A DNA stretch of 35,699 nt from positions 1 through 35,699 of the IMG/VR virus record IMGVR_UViG_3300036856_000021. The stretch is one strand, 5' to 3'. The translations under genes and the position numbers were made by a program. The DNA is from a virus. Taxonomy: Duplodnaviria; Caudoviricetes. The stretch's first letter is position 1. Each line of letters starts with the position of its first letter. The notes under the pieces were generated by a model. That model was not told the DNA's origin. It worked only from the letters and a program-made list of their open reading frames with translations, and did not search any database. Shown here piece after piece: positions 23 through 12,086 of the stretch.

Positions 23-1576
23 CTAGCCGTTGCCGTTGGTCCTGACCAATGTCTTCACTTGACCCATGAAGTCGCCATCGTCGTCGACCAGCTTGGCGTC
101 GTGCATGGCGTTTTGCACCATGCCCTTCATGACCTGCTCGAGCAGCGGCTTACGCTCACCCTCATCAGCCACCAGCATGATCTTCAACTGCGAGTGCAAC
201 GACGTGGCCGCAACCACCAGTGCCTCGGTGTCCAAGACGTAGTCGGTACTGCCACCAGCCAGGCTGATGGCGACCGTCTTGGCGCGCTCCAGGCTCTCCC
301 GTACAAACGCCGGGTAGAAGTTGTGCACGATTTTGATGCCGTCGCCGTGGTCAACGGACACCTTCATCGCCTCAAACACCTTGTCGTAGTCGACATCGGG
401 CGCCAGCCGCTTCTTGGCCACCACCGCCTTGATGAGACGCTCAATGCCGCTGCGGTCCAGCTCGCCAATCTCGACCACCGCATCCAGCCGACCAGGACGC
501 AACATCCCCTTGTGAATGCGCTCCAGGTGGTTGGTCGTCATCACCACCACCATGTCGGCGCCCTTGGCCGTGATGCCGTCGAAGGTCTCCAACAGCTTGG
601 TCACCTCGCCGTCCTCACTGGTACTGGCGGAAATGTCGATGTCCTCCACCGCCAATACGCTGGGCGCATACAGCCGCGCCGTCCGCATGGCCTCATTAAT
701 GTCCTGGCCCACGCCCGCCTTGATGTAGGTCCAGCCGTTGTCGACCGCGATCAGTGCCGTGTTCTGCAACGCGCTGGTCTTGCCACACCCGTACGGACCG
801 TGCATCAGACCGGCGCGCTTGATCTTTACCCCTTCTGACCGCAGTTCCTTGGTGTACTTGAGGACTGACCAGATGGTTCCCTCCAGGACCTTCTGGACCT
901 CATCGGCGAAGACGACCTCATTGGGCCGGAACGTCGACAGGTCCAGAAACTCTGGGTTACCCGTCCCGATGATGGCCTTACCCCGGTAAATGGAGTGGTC
1001 CTTGAGTTGCTGGGCAACTTCTTCGAAGAACTCCTTGATCACCCTCTCGTACTTCTTGGGGTACGACGCGGTCAGTCGAAACACCAGGCCGTGCTCGCCG
1101 CTCTTGGCCTGGCCGATTTCAAACTGCGTGTTGTCCATGGCGGGGATGGACACCAGTCCCCACGGCACCTCGACCGTCTCGTGCACCGAGGTCGGCACCG
1201 AGATGGTCTCAGGTGGTTGCTTGCCGAAGAAGGTGTACTTGGCCTCTCCGAATGAGATGCCGAATTTCGCCTTCATGATCGTGGCGGTGGCTACCGCGCC
1301 GTCGTACGGGCGGTACTTGTAGGTCTTGCCGTGGGAGACCACCGTCTCGCTGTACTCTTCGACTCGCTCCAGGACGGAGTGTGCCTTCCTGAAGGACATC
1401 TCGCGCGGCAGGAGGATTTTCGGGTCGTCGTGGAACTCAACCTCATCCCCCGTCACCACCGCGCTGGCCGGAATGTCACCCGGCTCCATCTGGCTGGCCA
1501 TTGCGGAGAGAAGGGCAAGCTTGAGAAGGTCTTGGTCCACACCGTTCGCGTCCCTCTTTTGCACATCAATACTCAA
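23..1576 (-). CDS. Classic-clade AAA+ ATPase with a long N-terminal domain
   Basis: Walker A GPYGCGKT, Walker B VLAVEDID, and sensor 1/second region of homology MTTNHLERIHKGMLRPGRLD. Start moved to TTG at 1576, after GAGGAG, because the ORF-track start at 1642 lies inside a promoter motif. Confidence 0.9.
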   Translation of the reverse strand: MSIDVQKRDANGVDQDLLKLALLSAMASQMEPGDIPASAVVTGDEVEFHDDPKILLPREMSFRKAHSVLERVEEYSETVVSHGKTYKYRPYDGAVATATIMKAKFGISFGEAKYTFFGKQPPETISVPTSVHETVEVPWGLVSIPAMDNTQFEIGQAKSGEHGLVFRLTASYPKKYERVIKEFFEEVAQQLKDHSIYRGKAIIGTGNPEFLDLSTFRPNEVVFADEVQKVLEGTIWSVLKYTKELRSEGVKIKRAGLMHGPYGCGKTSALQNTALIAVDNGWTYIKAGVGQDINEAMRTARLYAPSVLAVEDIDISASTSEDGEVTKLLETFDGITAKGADMVVVMTTNHLERIHKGMLRPGRLDAVVEIGELDRSGIERLIKAVVAKKRLAPDVDYDKVFEAMKVSVDHGDGIKIVHNFYPAFVRESLERAKTVAISLAGGSTDYVLDTEALVVAATSLHSQLKIMLVADEGERKPLLEQVMKGMVQNAMHDAKLVDDDGDFMGQVKTLVRTNGNG

Positions 1577-3672: not shown

Positions 3673-4380
3673 CTAATCCTCTTTTTCCAGGGACGTGTAC
3701 CTGGTCATCCACCACACTGTCGGCGGGTGGTCCAGGCGCTTCCACCAGCCGGGTTCGATGATGTCAAGGATGGCGCAGCATAAACTCTGCTCACCGACGC
3801 CATGGGCGTGACGGTGAGGTCCTGTCAGTACCCCCCGGCACTTAGCCTCGATCTTCTTCAGCGCATCACCCGTGGGGGCGGCCATGGGCGAAATAGCGCC
3901 GCGCCTACGCCGCTCACCATCAGAGGGGCCAGCCTTTAGCGCGACGTATGCCTTCGCGTACTTCTGCGTCAGTCGCTCCCGCTTGTCCTCGGGGTAGGGC
4001 CGCGTCGGGTCGGTATTGTCGGCCAGGTCAGCGAGCTTGACTTCGCGCGCCAAGACGGCGATGGGGTCCTCTTCCATCATCCGCCCGTAATAGTCCGCAT
4101 TGGGTTCGTGCATACGTTTGGTCAGCAACACCACGGTGCACACCACAATCCCCGGGACGCCCTGGTCCAGCAGGTGCGCGGCGGTGATGGGATGTAGGGA
4201 ATCCGCCGTGTCTTCAATGACGTCATGCAACAACGCCGCCATCCTGACCCAAGGGGCATCAGGGTCCACATACTGCGCCACCCTGCGCACATGTTCGATA
4301 TACGGCTTGCCCTGGTAGTCGACCTGTCCCGCGTGTGCCTGTTCGGCAATACGCTCACATAGCTCGATGCTCAATGACAT
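3673..4380 (-). CDS. RelA/SpoT-type HD-domain phosphohydrolase (small alarmone hydrolase/Mesh1-like)
   Basis: Motifs AHAGQVD..GKPYIEH, AALLHDVIEDT and VKLADLADN match the HD domain of RelA/SpoT homologues. No synthetase domain. Confidence 0.8.
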   Translation of the reverse strand: MSLSIELCERIAEQAHAGQVDYQGKPYIEHVRRVAQYVDPDAPWVRMAALLHDVIEDTADSLHPITAAHLLDQGVPGIVVCTVVLLTKRMHEPNADYYGRMMEEDPIAVLAREVKLADLADNTDPTRPYPEDKRERLTQKYAKAYVALKAGPSDGERRRRGAISPMAAPTGDALKKIEAKCRGVLTGPHRHAHGVGEQSLCCAILDIIEPGWWKRLDHPPTVWWMTRYTSLEKED

Positions 4381-6628: not shown

Positions 6629-6915
6629 TGCTGACTCCGCCAGTCTGGGTTCCACCGGGTGGGCACTTCGTCGATAAACGCGGACAGCCGGTCACGAATG
6701 GCAATGGCCTCATCCAGGCTCAGGTGCGCCGACATGCTCTTGCCGACGTGCTGACTCACCTTGGCGTCACCGTCGTCATAGACGCGCAACCAGCAGTGTG
6801 GCCCCTTGGCGATAGAGGATTCAAAAACCTCTACCTTCTCACCATAGGACGTCAGGACGGGCGCGCCGTACTGGTGAAAGCCGCGGTCGTTGCGCTCGGT
6901 GATCTCAATCGTCAC
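6625..6915 (-). CDS. Hypothetical phage protein (96 aa)
   Basis: Coupled ORF with RGF...ESS...HCWL...AHLSLDEA, a pattern typical of small uncharacterised phage proteins. Confidence 0.75.
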   Translation of the reverse strand: MTIEITERNDRGFHQYGAPVLTSYGEKVEVFESSIAKGPHCWLRVYDDGDAKVSQHVGKSMSAHLSLDEAIAIRDRLSAFIDEVPTRWNPDWRSQQ

Positions 6916-7223
6916 TTGGGCCTCACCTGGTCGATGGCGGCCTTCAAACGCTCCTGAAAGCCCGGGTCGTTGATGTCACCCTCCAGGACGACGTCCGCCA
7001 CCTTGGCCATCTTGTCGGAGATTGTCGTCCCCGTTGGCACGATGGCGATAATGGGCTTGTCCATCAGGATCATGAACCCTAACTCCACGGCCACCTTGAC
7101 GTCGGGAGTCTTGGGAACGATGGACATGGTGATGGCTGAATCCGCGATCATTGGGACAAGCTCTCGGGTCACACGCTCGGCGTATTCCATCCACTCGTCG
7201 CTGTTGAACGGGTCATCTGCCAT
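6912..7223 (-). CDS. Nucleoside 2-deoxyribosyltransferase (NDT)-like small protein
   Basis: MIADSAITMSIV..PDVKVAVELGFMILMDKPIIAIV resembles the NDT-family E-L-G-x-A-x-x-x-x-K-P motif. Confidence 0.5.
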   Translation of the reverse strand: MADDPFNSDEWMEYAERVTRELVPMIADSAITMSIVPKTPDVKVAVELGFMILMDKPIIAIVPTGTTISDKMAKVADVVLEGDINDPGFQERLKAAIDQVRPK

Positions 7224-7667: not shown

Positions 7668-7693
7668 ATTATACGCCACACCACTGGCACATC
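7668..7693 (-). promoter_or_regulatory. Leftward promoter, copy 3
   Basis: Minus strand reads GATGTGCCAG-TGGT-GTGGCG-TATAAT, immediately after the stop of the PurA-like gene. Confidence 0.75.
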
Positions 7694-7694
7694 G

Positions 7695-8963
7695 TTAGGT
7701 GGCAAGCGGTGCGTGCTCTCTTTTATTCTCGCAGGTCGGGCCATGAGACACGATACTGACGGGTCCGATGTCTTCCTCGATGGCGTTGAGTAGCCAGTTT
7801 TCGCTACCGCTTCGCAACACCGGGTGTACCTTGGCCAGCGTCTCGGTGATGTGCGTCTGGAACATCAGGTCACCGCGCCGCCCCAGTGGGATCTTCGGCA
7901 GGTCGTCATACTTCTCGCAGTAGCGCCCGGGATAGTTGTCCAGGTGGGTCACCACCACGCGATCCACGCCTCCGCAGACGGTCACGGCGTAGCGGTGCGC
8001 CACCAAGTCGAACCAACCCACACGGAAGTGTCCTTGCCAGGGTCCGGTGGCGTTGTCGGGCTCGATCCAGTTCTTGGTCAACCCCTCCGACTCAGTCGGG
8101 TGCGGTCCCGCGCCGTGCCGGGTGGTCACGGCGCGCAGTATCCCGTACCGGATTGCCTCCTCCTGCCTGCCGACCTCCCTCAGTAGCGTCAGGGCGTTTT
8201 CATGCGTGGTGGTCGACCAGGTGGTGAAGGGGTGGAAGCCATACCACTCATCAAGCAGTACGCCCTGGGCGCCCTCGAAGATGGTGTGGTCGTGCTCCTC
8301 GATCAGGACGCGCAAATAGTTGGACGGCGCGATGGTGATTTTCTGCGACCAGTCGCGGTACCTATCCGTCAGGTACTTGCTCAGGTCGCTGTCCATCATC
8401 ACTGACCAGTGTGGACTGGTGCTGGCCAGGTGGCGGTGGGCCGTGACCATCTCGTGGCGCATTGCCTCCAGGCGCGGCCAGAACCCCGGGTCCAGGATGT
8501 CTTTGACGCGCGGCGTCATGCTGTGGGGCTGGTCTATGGACCAGCTCATCGCCACACCAATGCCCTGGCCGCAACTACCGTGGCGGCTATCCCCCCGCGT
8601 CTCCTCCTGCAGGCGGTTGAGCGCGACATGCCATGGCGTGATGAGCATGGCGTTTTCATCCACAAAGGCGCGGTCCCAGATGTCCGTCAGTCCCAGGTCG
8701 ATGAGGTGGTCGGCCTCTCGCACCATGTTGAGCGGGTTGACCAGCATAAAGCGGGACAGGAAGGTCTTGGCGCCGGCGAAGCTCCCCGCGCCGAACTGCG
8801 CGAAGCAGTGTCGCCGTCTATCAGGCGTGACGACGTTGTGCCCGGCTTGCGGCCCACCGTTGTGGCGCACCACCACGGCGCTACCCTGCCGGGCCAGGTA
8901 ATCGGTGGTGGTGCCCTTGCCACAGTCGCCGTAGCCCAGGTCGGTGATGATGGAAATGGTCAT
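7695..8963 (-). CDS. Divergent adenylosuccinate synthetase (PurA)-like enzyme
   Basis: Motifs GYGDCGKG, GGPQAGHN, HGSCGQGIG, FEGAQGVLLD, TTRHGAGP, RVGWFD, THLD and VSHGP are collinear with PurA. The aspartate-binding loop is altered. Confidence 0.9.
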   Translation of the reverse strand: MTISIITDLGYGDCGKGTTTDYLARQGSAVVVRHNGGPQAGHNVVTPDRRRHCFAQFGAGSFAGAKTFLSRFMLVNPLNMVREADHLIDLGLTDIWDRAFVDENAMLITPWHVALNRLQEETRGDSRHGSCGQGIGVAMSWSIDQPHSMTPRVKDILDPGFWPRLEAMRHEMVTAHRHLASTSPHWSVMMDSDLSKYLTDRYRDWSQKITIAPSNYLRVLIEEHDHTIFEGAQGVLLDEWYGFHPFTTWSTTTHENALTLLREVGRQEEAIRYGILRAVTTRHGAGPHPTESEGLTKNWIEPDNATGPWQGHFRVGWFDLVAHRYAVTVCGGVDRVVVTHLDNYPGRYCEKYDDLPKIPLGRRGDLMFQTHITETLAKVHPVLRSGSENWLLNAIEEDIGPVSIVSHGPTCENKREHAPLAT

Positions 8964-9109
8964 GAGCCCCTGCTGAAGTCGGCGAGAATCTCTGCAAGCT
9001 TCATGTCCAGCTCCTCAATCTGCCCCTCGGTCCAGCCGCGGTCGCGTAGGTCCTCATGTAAACGATCCTTGATGTACTGCGTCACCTCTGCTTGCTTAAC
9101 CGGGTCCAC
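8960..9109 (-). CDS. Small helical hypothetical protein (49 aa)
   Basis: Read manually: MDPVKQAEVTQYIKDRLHEDLRDRGWTEGQIEELDMKLAEILADFSRGS. Overlaps both neighbours by 1-4 nt. Confidence 0.7.
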   Translation of the reverse strand: MDPVKQAEVTQYIKDRLHEDLRDRGWTEGQIEELDMKLAEILADFSRGS

Positions 9110-9309
9110 TAGACCAGCCCCCGTTGGTCCTTAAGCCGCCTGAGGGTAGCGACGTCATCATCAATGCTGCTTGTCATCGGTCGCTGACAGAAGTCGCACA
9201 GCACCCCCGGTGGCAGGACATGCGCCACCCTAATCTCACCAGGGTGAACGCTGTCCTGTGCACACGCATGAGAGCAGTAGAAGTGATCCTTGATCCGCCA
9301 GGCTTTCAC
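9109..9309 (-). CDS. Small Cys-rich (zinc-binding) protein
   Basis: Contains YCSHAC...CDFC; GTGA overlap with the upstream stop. Confidence 0.65.
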   Translation of the reverse strand: MKAWRIKDHFYCSHACAQDSVHPGEIRVAHVLPPGVLCDFCQRPMTSSIDDDVATLRRLKDQRGLV

Positions 9310-9512
9310 GTCACACACTCAGGACAGATATGACGGTCGCCGTCAATCTGCCATCCGTTCTCGCGGATGACGTGCTCTACCCTGGCGGGGTCATGGAGTG
9401 AGTCCCAACCGTGTAGCCCGTGTGCGATGTACTGCGTCCCGCATTTGTCGCACTGAATCTTTGGGGTCCACAGGTTGAGGAAATGGTCGATACCCGCGAC
9501 TACTGCTCTCAT
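9306..9512 (-). CDS. Small zinc-ribbon protein
   Basis: Contains CDKCG...GW...HICPEC; GGAGG RBS before the ATG at 9512. Confidence 0.75.
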   Translation of the reverse strand: MRAVVAGIDHFLNLWTPKIQCDKCGTQYIAHGLHGWDSLHDPARVEHVIRENGWQIDGDRHICPECVT

Positions 9513-9522
9513 GCGTCCTCCG

Positions 9523-9789
9523 TTACAACCGGTAGGGCTCAATGGTGTCCCGGCGACTGGGTGAGCGCCAGCCGCCGGGAACACTGTTGGCTGGCCATCG
9601 CCATTGTCCAGGCTTCCACTGTCGCGGTATCCACCTCACCTGACAGCTACACACGAAGTACGGCTGGCCGTCGAACATGGTGCCCAGGACGAAGTGGTGA
9701 CCTTTGACATGGTCGTGCCACCACCGACGCATCACCACGCGGGGAGGGGTCGGTGGTGGTGCCTTCGGCCAACTGACAGGGTCATTCAC
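9523..9789 (-). CDS. Small Trp/Pro-rich hypothetical protein
   Basis: ATGA overlap with the vWA stop; contains HH...CSC. Confidence 0.55.
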   Translation of the reverse strand: MNDPVSWPKAPPPTPPRVVMRRWWHDHVKGHHFVLGTMFDGQPYFVCSCQVRWIPRQWKPGQWRWPANSVPGGWRSPSRRDTIEPYRL

Positions 9790-10814
9790 AGCCGTGCTGC
9801 CCCACCGTCACCGGCAACGTCCAGCTCACCCTCAACCTTGGCGACCACGCCGCCCCCGCCGCCGCCGACTGTGGCAAGCGTCTTGCTGGTGGATTGGACC
9901 GCTGCGGGATCAAAGCCAGCATCCTGCAACAGACCCGCCAAGTCCTCATCGTCCACCCCGGCTTCCAGCTTGGCCAGCAGGCCCGCAATGAACTCGCAGA
10001 CGTTGTTGGGGTCTTCGAGGACCAGCGCGTTCTCGTTGAGCAGTTCCTTCCATGGCGCCAGGACGCGGTCCTTGTCGCCGTTGCGCCCGTACATCCCCTG
10101 CATCTGGAACAGGTAGTAGACGTTGTACTGCTCCTGCAGCTTGTCGAAGACGTCCTTGGTCGGGATGTCGGCTTCAAGCTCGTCACCGATGTGCGCCTTG
10201 ACGTGGTGTCGCTCCACCCGGGGGTACGGCTTCTCGTCGCCGATGAAGATGGCGTATCCCTTGCGGTCCTGCTTGGCCACCGTCTCCAGGTTCGTGTGGT
10301 GCGCCAGGAAATACGCCGCCAGCTCATAGGTCTCCATGCCCTGTCCGCCGCCACCGTCTTCCAGATACATGTTCTTGACCATGTCGTCGATGCGGTTGTC
10401 GGACTCAAAGTTCCCCACCTGCAACGGCACCCGGTCGCTGTTGGCATCCCCGGTGGCGCCGATGAGCACCTGCGGGTCACTGATGCCGCCGATGCGCTGG
10501 AGCGCGCCGAACAGCTGCGGCAACTTGGCGTGCACCGCCTTGGCGGCGGCACTGTTGCTGGCCGTGACGTCGAGGATGATCGCCACCGGCGTCGGGCTGG
10601 GGTGCTCATCCGTCACACACACCTCGCGCATGATCTGGCCGGCGAAGGGACTGGCGTCGGTTGCCACCTTCTTGGGGTCCAGCAGCTCGTGTGCCCCGGC
10701 GGCAATGCTGCCGCTGTTGATCAGGCTGGTGTGTTGAAACGTCTGCCGCCCTGCCGCCTTGTCGGCTTGCACACGCGCACCGTAGTCGTAGCTATTCCAA
10801 TTTCCGCCGCCCAT
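9786..10814 (-). CDS. von Willebrand factor A (vWA) domain protein
   Basis: MIDAS-like IILDVTAS, then GGGGQGMETYELA and IFIGDEKPY. Starts MGGGNW after an AAAGGAGAG RBS. Confidence 0.85.
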   Translation of the reverse strand: MGGGNWNSYDYGARVQADKAAGRQTFQHTSLINSGSIAAGAHELLDPKKVATDASPFAGQIMREVCVTDEHPSPTPVAIILDVTASNSAAAKAVHAKLPQLFGALQRIGGISDPQVLIGATGDANSDRVPLQVGNFESDNRIDDMVKNMYLEDGGGGQGMETYELAAYFLAHHTNLETVAKQDRKGYAIFIGDEKPYPRVERHHVKAHIGDELEADIPTKDVFDKLQEQYNVYYLFQMQGMYGRNGDKDRVLAPWKELLNENALVLEDPNNVCEFIAGLLAKLEAGVDDEDLAGLLQDAGFDPAAVQSTSKTLATVGGGGGGVVAKVEGELDVAGDGGAARL

Positions 10815-10827
10815 TATCTCTCCTTTC

Positions 10828-11991
10828 CTACGCCGTGCCGCTGTTCGGCATGACAAGTTCGATGTAGGTCCGCTGGCCACTGAGAGTGGTGAACGGCGGA
10901 CCCAGCCGCTTGAGCAGTTCGTCGAATTCCTTGAGCAGCTTCCACGCGCTCTGTGGCCGCATCTCCTGCTTGACCTGTAGGCAGCCCTGGAAATAGGCCC
11001 GCATGGGTCCTGGGCTCAGCGCATAGTTCTTGGCGCGCCAGATGGCGTAGTAACTGCCGTCGCGCTCAATGACGTCAGCGCCCATGAGGTAGATGAGCGT
11101 CCGCGCGGCCTGGAAGAGGTCAGTGGCTGGGGACGGCGCTTCCTTATTGAGGACTTCCTGCGGGTACCAGTCTTTGTGGAGTCCGTCGTGACGGAACATC
11201 GGCACCACCGCTTTGATCGGTGGGTAGGCGTCGGCCTTGATGCTGGCGTAGCACCAGTCGACCAGCAGGACGTAGTGGAACTTGGGGTGGATGAGCACGT
11301 GGGTCGGGACCACCGCGCCGTGGACAATACCCAGGTCATGTGTCCGCCCCAGCGCCATGAGCAACCGGCGCCAGACCCACGCGGCGTGCACCATCTCCAG
11401 GCCGTCAAACGCCTCCTTGACCTCACGTAAGTCGTAGCAATCCTCCACGCGCACGATGACGTTCGCCTGTCGGCGGGTCTTGTCGGCTTGTGGCGCATAT
11501 ATAAAGGTGTCGACCAAGGCGGGAAAATGCCTGTTCAGCAGATTGTCTTCCTTGTGCAGGAGCTTGAGCGCCTTGGCTTCAGTCTTGAGAAGCTCTCCGT
11601 CCCTGGGGTTCTTCGCGATCTTGATGAACGTCGCGCCACCACTGCCCGAGCTGGTGGCACCCCACAGACTGCAGATGTCGCCACTGCCGAGGGAGCAGTC
11701 GACCTTATGCACCGCCTTGCGACCCCTGATAATGGAGTCCACTGTGGCGTCACCGAACTTGCCTTCATCCAGCTTCTGTTCTGCCTGCGCGTTGAGCGCA
11801 TTGAGACGAGTAAAAACGTCGGCGGCCAGCCGCTCTTCCTCACCGCTGTAGCGGTCAGGGTGGGCCACGCGAGCCAGCTTGCGGTACATCGCTTTGACCT
11901 GAGCCGCGGTGGTGGTGGGGTCTTTGCCGAAGATGTCGCGGTAGTCCAGCGCCTTCTTCAATCGGTCGGCCAATGCCTGCAACTCAGTCAT
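10828..11991 (-). CDS. J-domain (HPD) fused to a Ser/Thr kinase-like domain, likely a pseudokinase
   Basis: J-domain YRKLARVAHPDRY. Kinase elements LGSGD, FIKIAK, E..AL, GIVHGAVVPTHVLI, LVDWCYA, YPQE and ATDLF. ATG at 11991 follows AGGGAG. Confidence 0.85.
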   Translation of the reverse strand: MTELQALADRLKKALDYRDIFGKDPTTTAAQVKAMYRKLARVAHPDRYSGEEERLAADVFTRLNALNAQAEQKLDEGKFGDATVDSIIRGRKAVHKVDCSLGSGDICSLWGATSSGSGGATFIKIAKNPRDGELLKTEAKALKLLHKEDNLLNRHFPALVDTFIYAPQADKTRRQANVIVRVEDCYDLREVKEAFDGLEMVHAAWVWRRLLMALGRTHDLGIVHGAVVPTHVLIHPKFHYVLLVDWCYASIKADAYPPIKAVVPMFRHDGLHKDWYPQEVLNKEAPSPATDLFQAARTLIYLMGADVIERDGSYYAIWRAKNYALSPGPMRAYFQGCLQVKQEMRPQSAWKLLKEFDELLKRLGPPFTTLSGQRTYIELVMPNSGTA

Positions 11992-12032: not shown

Positions 12033-12059
12033 ATTATATAGTACCCGACTGGCTTTTAC
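12033..12059 (-). promoter_or_regulatory. Leftward promoter, copy 4 (head of the accessory block)
   Basis: Minus strand reads GTAAAAGCCAG-TCGGGTACTA-TATAAT, with the same GCCAG-to-TATAAT spacing. The downstream TGGGACGGTGGCAA resembles copy 1 (TGGACACGGCGGCAA). Confidence 0.7.
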
Positions 12060-12063
12060 TGTA

Positions 12064-12086
12064 GTTTTCGACTGTAAGTCGAAAAC
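12064..12086. promoter_or_regulatory. Perfect palindrome, candidate operator in the divergent intergenic region
   Basis: GTTTTCGACT-GTA-AGTCGAAAAC, with 10-bp arms and a 3-bp spacer. Confidence 0.5.

Follow-up and report, generated by a model that had tools for sequence, protein, structure and literature searches.

Covariation between the N-terminus of a vWA protein and a divergent PurA paralogue in a gene module of phages and bacteria

Introduction

Why would a phage carry a relative of the purine enzyme adenylosuccinate synthetase (PurA) beside a von Willebrand factor A (vWA) protein and a J-domain fused to a kinase fold? The question is raised by the minus strand of the linear virus record IMGVR_UViG_3300036856_000021 (35,699 bases, completeness about 30%), which we analysed over its whole length and refer to as the window. 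An initial annotation had described three large co-oriented genes under one promoter and had proposed that they serve not purine housekeeping but a chaperone-gated modification of a nucleotide or protein. We find that the N-terminus of the vWA protein follows the identity of its partner enzyme, and we suggest, tentatively, that the PurA paralogue acts on that N-terminus. The three open reading frames (ORFs) are present, all on the minus strand, and the argument turns on the following features.

7695-8963, minus strand: PurA paralogue of 422 amino acids (aa); Pfam family PF00709, E 3e-58; loop W309-Q310-G-H-F313-R314; altered site for inosine monophosphate (IMP)
9786-10814, minus strand: vWA protein of 342 aa with the N-terminal arm Met-Gly-Gly-Gly-Asn-Trp; metal-site residues D82/T84/S86, E161 and D193
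10797..10814, minus strand: first six codons of the vWA gene; the amine of Gly2, which removal of the Met would free, is the proposed acceptor
10828-11991, minus strand: J-domain plus Ser/Thr-kinase-fold pseudokinase (J-kinase) of 387 aa; HPD at 44-46, K124 and E138 kept, A226 in place of the catalytic Asp, DFG changed to DWC; phrog_3043
12033..12038, minus strand: TATAAT -10 element heading the putative unit, one of 5 in the window where 1.1 are expected
7668..7673, minus strand: next TATAAT, 22 bp past the stop of the PurA-like gene, which would bound the unit

Results

The initial annotation had mentioned similar trios in actinobacterial chromosomes and some large actinophages, and the neighbourhoods of the homologues bear this out, since the module recurs across phages and bacteria. 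A tblastn search against 50,697 phage records, duplicates included, matched the PurA-like protein in 240 records, the vWA protein in 220 and the J-kinase in 203, with Mycobacterium accounting for 201 in each of the three match lists, which were counted separately and not paired record by record. Conservation of the trio extends over about 200 records of cluster C mycobacteriophages, other large phages and scattered bacteria. Because the model phage Bxz1 carries it (gp247, gp248 and gp250), the module is testable in Mycobacterium smegmatis.

The vWA protein is an obligate partner of the PurA paralogue. Among 118 loci picked through the vWA gene and having a readable start, 97 contain the PurA paralogue, nine contain a pyruvate-kinase-like gene without PurA, and the remaining 12 end at most about 420 bp from the vWA gene. 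Conversely, viral loci picked through the PurA paralogue have a vWA gene within 6 kb in 77 of 80 cases, the upstream DNA of the other three being shorter than 1 kb. The module can do without its J-kinase, whose gene is absent from a Vibrio and a Rhizobium phage that carry the vWA and PurA-like genes, and from other loci as well. The vWA protein is rare in the genome samples, in which many genomes are incomplete (3 of 401 for Actinomycetota and 6 of 301 for the Saccharibacteria class, counting the centres; the unpublished genome G006 was among those sampled), and at 50% identity its family resolves into 1,133 clusters (E up to 1e-30). The three-gene system is real, conserved and apparently undescribed; no account of it was found in the literature searched, which covered few subscription journals and took articles without their supplements, and the portion of PMC9476963 at hand merely lists gene names.

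The assignment of the middle gene as a vWA protein with a metal-ion-dependent adhesion site agrees with the motif D82-V-T84-A-S86; hhalign comparison with five known vWA domains gave a candidate profile match (probability 85%, E 6e-6, 94 columns), three control alignments giving E 0.15-0.3. Residues D82, T84, S86, E161 and D193 are invariant across 118 vWA rows, and structure-atlas leads reach 0.80-0.83. The Pfam vWA models matched none of 118 family members, and sequence searches of Pfam, NCBIfam, PADLOC and the PDB yielded no name for the protein. In some cluster C phages (L265:1501-3282; P0024; P0234) the vWA protein contains an intein-like insert of about 250 aa, located a few residues ahead of D193 and the conserved Gly-Asp-Glu motif, a position that fits expectation because the D193 region is a conserved functional site.

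The J-kinase agrees with its earlier description as an HPD J-domain fused to a kinase fold. In its structural model (predicted local distance difference test, pLDDT, 93.4) the HPD lies between helices II and III, at 29-43 and 51-75, and Foldseek matches it to Ser/Thr kinases with E 6e-12 and weaker; the match to Pfam DnaJ (E 3e-5) lies below the curated cut-off. Of 80 kinases aligned, 79 have the HPD. The beta3 Lys and alphaC Glu of the kinase fold are retained, but the catalytic loop reads HGAVVPTH and the DFG position DWC, so that both HxD-x-K-P-x-N and DFG are absent. Its designation as a pseudokinase holds for the PurA-linked form of the module in general, since only eight of the 80 kinases have the catalytic Asp and all eight come from the form without PurA.

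These two forms differ in a coordinated manner. With the PurA paralogue as partner, the vWA protein begins Met-Gly and the kinase is dead; with the pyruvate-kinase-like enzyme, it begins Met-Ser-Glu and the kinase is intact. By an automatic start rule, Gly2 occurs in 146 of 148 non-identical PurA-linked vWA sequences at a fixed distance from the core, the other two being picks of an upstream Met; eight further loci, for which the rule gave no start, were set aside: L121-L123 show Met-Gly on inspection, contig edges truncate two, and three have no in-frame ATG. Position 3 is variable (G 71, S 54, H 7, Y 5, N 4, A 3). The 23 vWA proteins whose loci showed no J-kinase, some of these loci lying on short contigs, likewise all have Gly2. 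Starts annotated in databases give Met-Gly in 114 of 120 proteins and, for the best 150 representatives at 50% identity, in 135, the rest being mostly fragments or uncertain starts. In the PurA-less form, by contrast, the vWA protein has Ser2 in 15 of 16 cases (one reads Met-Pro-Glu) and Glu3 in all 16, and the kinases show HGDxKPxN with DFG or DYG. Selecting by the pyruvate-kinase-like gene gave 20 loci with 17 kinases, every one of which retains the catalytic Asp; seven of these loci also belong to the set of eight kinases above.

The sister module (L015, L018, L106-L110, L112, L113, L235-L253) thus combines a live J-kinase, a Met-Ser-Glu vWA protein and a short pyruvate-kinase-like barrel; it lacks the PurA-like gene and comes from viral contigs and, in part, from bacterial genome bins. 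A clostridial five-gene form (L013, L014, L016, L017, L019) contains pyruvate-kinase-like, PurA-like and uridine-kinase-like genes together with a dead J-kinase (HGN) and a vWA protein whose arm is Ser-rich and begins Met-Gly. In a tree of 82 vWA cores, the Ser-type proteins form one clade (support 0.97) whose sister is this clostridial form; the tree is midpoint-rooted, so the root does not give the direction of the switch. Because the nearest relatives of the Ser-type proteins carry the PurA-like gene, Met-Gly and a dead kinase, the arm follows the enzyme and not the ancestry of the core. That Ser2 might turn into a pyruvoyl group, on which the pyruvate-kinase-like enzyme would act, was considered and is disfavoured, as the vWA protein beside that enzyme in the clostridial loci is of the Gly type. 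The clostridial locus L013 is probably mobile, given the adjoining Mob_Pre and TnpV genes. Genes for a Thg1-like protein (tRNA-His guanylyltransferase) recur near both module forms in viral contigs (L106, L107, L110, L193, L211, L232).

What chemistry might the PurA paralogue perform? Its model (pLDDT 94.6) superimposes on PurA structures with a template-modelling (TM) score of about 0.8, PurZ structures ranking below all of them. We compared 74 paralogues with 29 canonical actinobacterial PurA proteins, using E. coli numbering. The residues for guanosine triphosphate (GTP) and catalysis are kept, those of the P-loop GDxGKG among them: D13, K16, H41, Q224 and R272 in 74/74, T239 in 73/74 and D333 in 72/74. 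In canonical PurA, single loop residues hold the two carboxylates of aspartate; this TTGRxRRxGW-type loop (T300-T301-G-R303-x-R305) is replaced by W-Q-G-x-F-R in most of the 74 paralogues. For the H. pylori enzyme, a passage of PMC11276676 describes the matching loop as aspartate-binding and names Arg135, Asn37, Thr121, Thr230 and Val264 as IMP contacts. In the paralogues V273 is changed to His in all 74, N38 to Gln in 72, S240 to Trp in 66 and D231 to Trp in 45, T129 is Cys in 57 and Thr in 13, and the R143 segment, which makes a contact from the other subunit, is not conserved. Since the activation residues are kept, the loop is rebuilt and the IMP contacts are changed, the first half-reaction (activation by GTP) looks intact, aspartate is unlikely to be the amine substrate, and the nucleotide substrate may be something other than plain IMP.

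Consistent with this, the protein scores 157 and 137 bits against the purA equivalog models, whose cut-offs are 402 and 396, and a canonical purA lies elsewhere in two of five host genomes checked (G001, G003). The initial claim that the gene is a PurA paralogue outside purine housekeeping agrees with these data. The label '2-aminooxy adenylosuccinate synthetase' (PurZ) is attached to phrog_1211 and to GenBank/RefSeq cluster C records; it looks like a misannotation of the cluster C genes because Asp13 is kept. The residue pattern indicates that both database labels for the enzyme, PurA and PurZ, are wrong.

We modelled the PurA-like protein with vWA residues 2-315, guanosine diphosphate and adenosine monophosphate (AMP), without Mg, alongside three controls. 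The prediction supports the pairing weakly, with a score of 0.47 against a best control of 0.00. The individual runs gave 0.47, 0.02 and 0.53, with contact agreement of at least 33% and partner pLDDT of at least 78. In calibration, 116 of 157 solved pairs and 2 of 215 mismatched ones attained the mark; among those that did so with a score of 0.60 or under were just 18 of the solved pairs but both mismatches.

The bacterial copies link the module to nicotinamide adenine dinucleotide (NAD). Among cellular loci with full flanks, 25 of 34 have an NrtR gene within 2.5 kb, compared with none of eight PurA-less loci and none of the seven viral loci in the first locus set. Palindromes of the form GT-N7-AC, given in PMC2330246 as the core consensus of NrtR sites, lie upstream in 27 of 65 loci versus 8 of 218 control regions; in both counts related Saccharibacteria loci weigh heavily. 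Neighbouring genes related to NAD encode NAPRTase, nicotinamidase, NAD synthase, ARG, PARG, NAMPT and NADAR, and an NADAR-like gene occurs in 5 of 80 viral loci, some of them duplicates. The main text of PMC2330246 contains neither 'purA' nor 'adenylosucc'. Several large viral contigs (L157, L158, L162, L175, L182, L184, L185, L199, L219) have their own NrtR-like regulator beside the module, most of them together with a NAMPT-like gene. The phage copy in the window has neither a 21-bp GT-N7-AC palindrome upstream nor an adjacent nrtR, and its control by an NrtR operator is rejected on matrix scores; bacterial copies do show such features.

Returning to the window, its plus strand carries tail and head-tail genes, and an early-type gene block runs leftwards on the minus strand from 12,000. 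GC content is roughly constant at about 0.6, and no tRNA genes were found in the window. Run X1 includes a single contig of 57,488 bp that contains the entire window without a mismatch and may be its own source; the small-share runs X2-X4 yielded short pieces only. TATAAT occurs five times (1625, 5486, 7673 on the minus strand, 12038 on the minus strand and 13538 on the plus strand) against an expectation of 1.1 +/- 1.1, and every copy directly precedes a gene; TGGCG stands immediately 5' of three of the five, and elements so marked are likely a phage promoter class. A sigma-70 scan detected neither the 12038-12033 nor the 7673-7668 site because their -35 hexamers are poor. A bounded transcription unit from 12038 to 7673 is nevertheless plausible, as TATAAT is over-represented and precedes a gene each time, at these two positions included. 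The two promoters that the initial annotation had placed at 12033 and just past the PurA-like stop therefore hold up as sequence elements, and its single bounded unit would keep both ends; its gene count does not stand, since about 820 bp with four small overlapping ORFs separates the vWA from the PurA-like gene and the unit would hold seven genes instead of three. These ORFs and one further element are as follows.

9523..9789, minus strand: small ORF of 88 aa whose start overlaps the vWA stop; apparent lineage-specific insert
9306..9512, minus strand: small ORF of 68 aa with two CxxC pairs and a good ribosome-binding site; apparent lineage-specific insert; weak phrog_21667 match, E 3e-4
9109..9309, minus strand: small ORF of 66 aa, Cys/His-rich; apparent lineage-specific insert
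8960..9109, minus strand: small ORF of 49 aa whose stop overlaps the PurA-like start; apparent lineage-specific insert
12064..12086, no strand: inverted repeat with perfect 10-bp arms and a 3-bp loop, upstream of the module promoter between divergent genes

The four small ORFs have no relatives among 115 loci and are on that ground ruled out as parts of the module; the cluster C phages I3, DrPhinkDaddy and Bxz1 have a single small gene each in the equivalent gap. The inverted repeat is a possible phage operator or repressor site and is not NrtR-like. Further left lie an HD phosphohydrolase (phrog_990; 3673-4380, minus strand) and a small protein (6912-7223, minus strand) with a weak nucleoside 2-deoxyribosyltransferase-like match (E 0.001). 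The AAA+ gene at 23-1576 (minus strand), which had been suggested as a partner, is not tied to the module: it has its own TATAAT at 1625, and one FtsH gene was the only match among 115 loci. Its top family matches are of the CDC48/proteasome type (CDC48/PAN-type models, phrog_10440), and a link of the module to a MoxR-clade AAA+ was dropped, as the protein fits those models instead and is not conserved near the module.

Discussion

We speculate that the PurA paralogue joins a hypoxanthine-type nucleotide to the amine of vWA Gly2 and that this tag switches the vWA protein during NAD stress. We infer all of the catalytic steps and give this working model somewhat less than an even chance, favouring it because it most simply explains together the module, the residue pattern, the N-terminal covariation, the dead kinase and the bacterial NrtR link. 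Methionine aminopeptidase removes Met1 before a small residue such as Gly2, and in the vWA protein this would expose the Gly2 amine. The PurA-like enzyme would use GTP to phosphorylate O6 of IMP or of a longer inosine nucleotide, for example inosine diphosphate (IDP)-ribose, as in the first step of PurA, and the Gly2 amine would then attack C6 of the purine in the place of aspartate. A peptide glycine lacks the carboxylates of aspartate, which would fit the disappearance of the Thr-Thr-Gly-Arg-x-Arg binders in favour of bulky Trp, Gln and Phe. The nucleotide would alter what the metal site of the vWA protein binds, and the J-pseudokinase, an optional component, would hold the vWA protein and recruit DnaK. 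In the sister form, phosphorylation of the Ser-Glu-Ser arm by the live kinase would take the place of the tag. A rise in ADP-ribose would make NrtR free the operon in bacteria; the phage copy would be under its own promoter and probably serves to cope with NAD-depleting host defence, so that we infer, as had been suggested initially, a counter-defence role. Stated in full, this would be a new protein modification, a GTP-driven C6 link of IMP or an ADP-ribose-like inosine nucleotide to a vWA glycine, which replaces Ser phosphorylation, is run by NrtR in bacteria and is carried by phages against NAD-based defence. We regard this complete version as possible and advance it with additional reserve.

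Several observations weigh against this model. The covariation represents a single evolutionary event without repeated switches because the Ser-type vWA proteins are monophyletic. One PurA-less vWA protein begins Met-Pro (L250), and the three PurA-linked ones without a usable start have no in-frame ATG ahead of the glycine (L176, L214, L220). A docking peptide, a plug or an arm folded back onto the vWA protein itself would account for the invariant Gly2 just as well. The altered IMP site leaves the nucleotide substrate unfixed, and no deaminase making IDP-ribose recurs among the annotated neighbours. The complex prediction came without contacts and with one of its three runs failing; a pass at its level is more often wrong than right unless the pair was likely beforehand. 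As to NAD, a near-full NrtR-like gene is present in only 9 of the 80 viral loci and a NAMPT-like gene in 10, some being duplicates. The phage fragment has no NrtR-like site, with a best matrix score of -9.6 upstream and -0.1 in the whole window, where 29 of 35 training sites score 18 or more, and the window ORFs scanned include no NAD-salvage gene.

Part of this evidence would suit a small-molecule reaction, in which the paralogue aminates, or changes in some other way, a soluble hypoxanthine nucleotide derived from NAD or ADP-ribose, drawing on ammonia or another small amine, so that adenine nucleotides are restored or a signal is made, while the vWA arm does no more than dock and activate the enzyme. 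NrtR control and the NAD-salvage neighbours are as expected for such a reaction, as are the changed 5'-phosphate contacts of the IMP site; the clostridial uridine-kinase-like and pyruvate-kinase-like genes resemble a nucleotide supply, and a pocket filled by Trp, Gln and Phe could suit ammonia. It leaves unexplained why Gly2 is fixed at a free N-terminus next to a variable residue 3, and why the arm switches to Ser-Glu-Ser where a live kinase replaces the PurA paralogue, and we consider it somewhat unlikely. A toxin-antitoxin-like or defence role appears distinctly less probable. Here the arm would be a substrate-mimicking plug, and DnaK brought by the J-pseudokinase, or a ligand of the vWA protein, would release the enzyme to modify another protein or to drain GTP or IMP. 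The obligate linkage of PurA-like and vWA genes, the patchy distribution in Actinomycetota and the Saccharibacteria class, the near-universal HPD and the weak complex support would all agree with a plug, but the J-kinase is absent in scattered lineages, lytic phages retain the module in some 200 records, and PADLOC returned generic kinase matches only.

The readings that keep the enzyme closer to its annotation fare worse. In ordinary auxiliary purine metabolism, an adenylosuccinate synthetase that has diverged but still works would raise the AMP supply; the PurA fold, the retained catalytic and GTP residues and the PurA-like annotation in phage records speak for this, and the rebuilt aspartate loop, the scores far below both equivalog cut-offs, the canonical purA alongside in G001 and G003 and the obligate vWA partner make it very improbable. 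PurZ-type synthesis of 2-aminoadenine for a modified genome has in its favour the phrog_1211 and RefSeq cluster C label and the HD hydrolase at 3673-4380. We give it next to no credence: Asp13 stands in 74/74 paralogues against Ser in all 147 phage PurZ of PMC12884076, the PurZ NCBIfam model scores 44 bits against a cut-off of 300, PurZ structures rank under all PurA structures, and PurZ uses aspartate. A small share of probability, slightly under that of the plug, is left for explanations not listed here. If the glycine tag is real, nucleotides would be linked to proteins in a new way, and the phage-bacteria conflict over NAD and ADP-ribose would gain a new arm; if it fails, the enzyme remains a PurA paralogue of some other chemistry under NAD-stress control.

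Comparison with known systems

The TerY triad consists of a vWA protein, a kinase and a phosphatase; the module shares the pairing of a vWA protein with a kinase and differs in that the kinase is dead in its PurA-linked form. MoxR-vWA pairs are covered in PMC7159879 and PMC7824862, and the ternary systems of PMC7159879 resemble the module in having a vWA metal-site protein within a conflict-like operon; the module instead has a J-domain protein, and neither MoxR nor a PP2C cluster recurs among its annotated neighbours. The anti-ADP-ribosylation systems centred on ARG, to which section 3.8 of PMC9503650 assigns a vWA chaperone and a transcription factor of the Nudix type, are similar in their Nudix-HTH regulator and vWA peptide binder, and ARG or PARG lies beside some module loci. 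Those systems are built on ARG and a phosphatase, whereas ARG is merely an occasional neighbour of the module, and the main text of PMC9503650 mentions neither PurA nor DnaJ.

With the NrtR regulons (PMC2330246), bacterial copies share adjoining NrtR genes, GT-N7-AC palindromes and NAD-salvage genes, and some phage copies adjoin a NAMPT-like gene, as in the phage NAD-reconstitution pathways NARP1-3 (PMC13464706). In contrast to both, no module gene is itself an NAD-salvage enzyme, and the phage copy is without an NrtR-like site. PurZ and PurZ0 of Z-genome phages (6FM1, 7ODX, 7VF6) are, like the module enzyme, phage-borne PurA paralogues of altered specificity; the module paralogue keeps Asp13 and matches PurA better, and PurZ still uses aspartate. 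The closest relative is PurA itself (EC 6.3.4.4, PF00709; E. coli 1ADE/1CG1), with which the paralogue shares its fold (TM about 0.82), D13/K16, H41, Q224, T239 and the guanine-reading D333. It departs from PurA in the rebuilt aspartate loop, the lost R143 segment and the changes N38Q, T129C, V273H and S240W, and, well under the purA equivalog cut-offs, it stands consistently beside a vWA gene.

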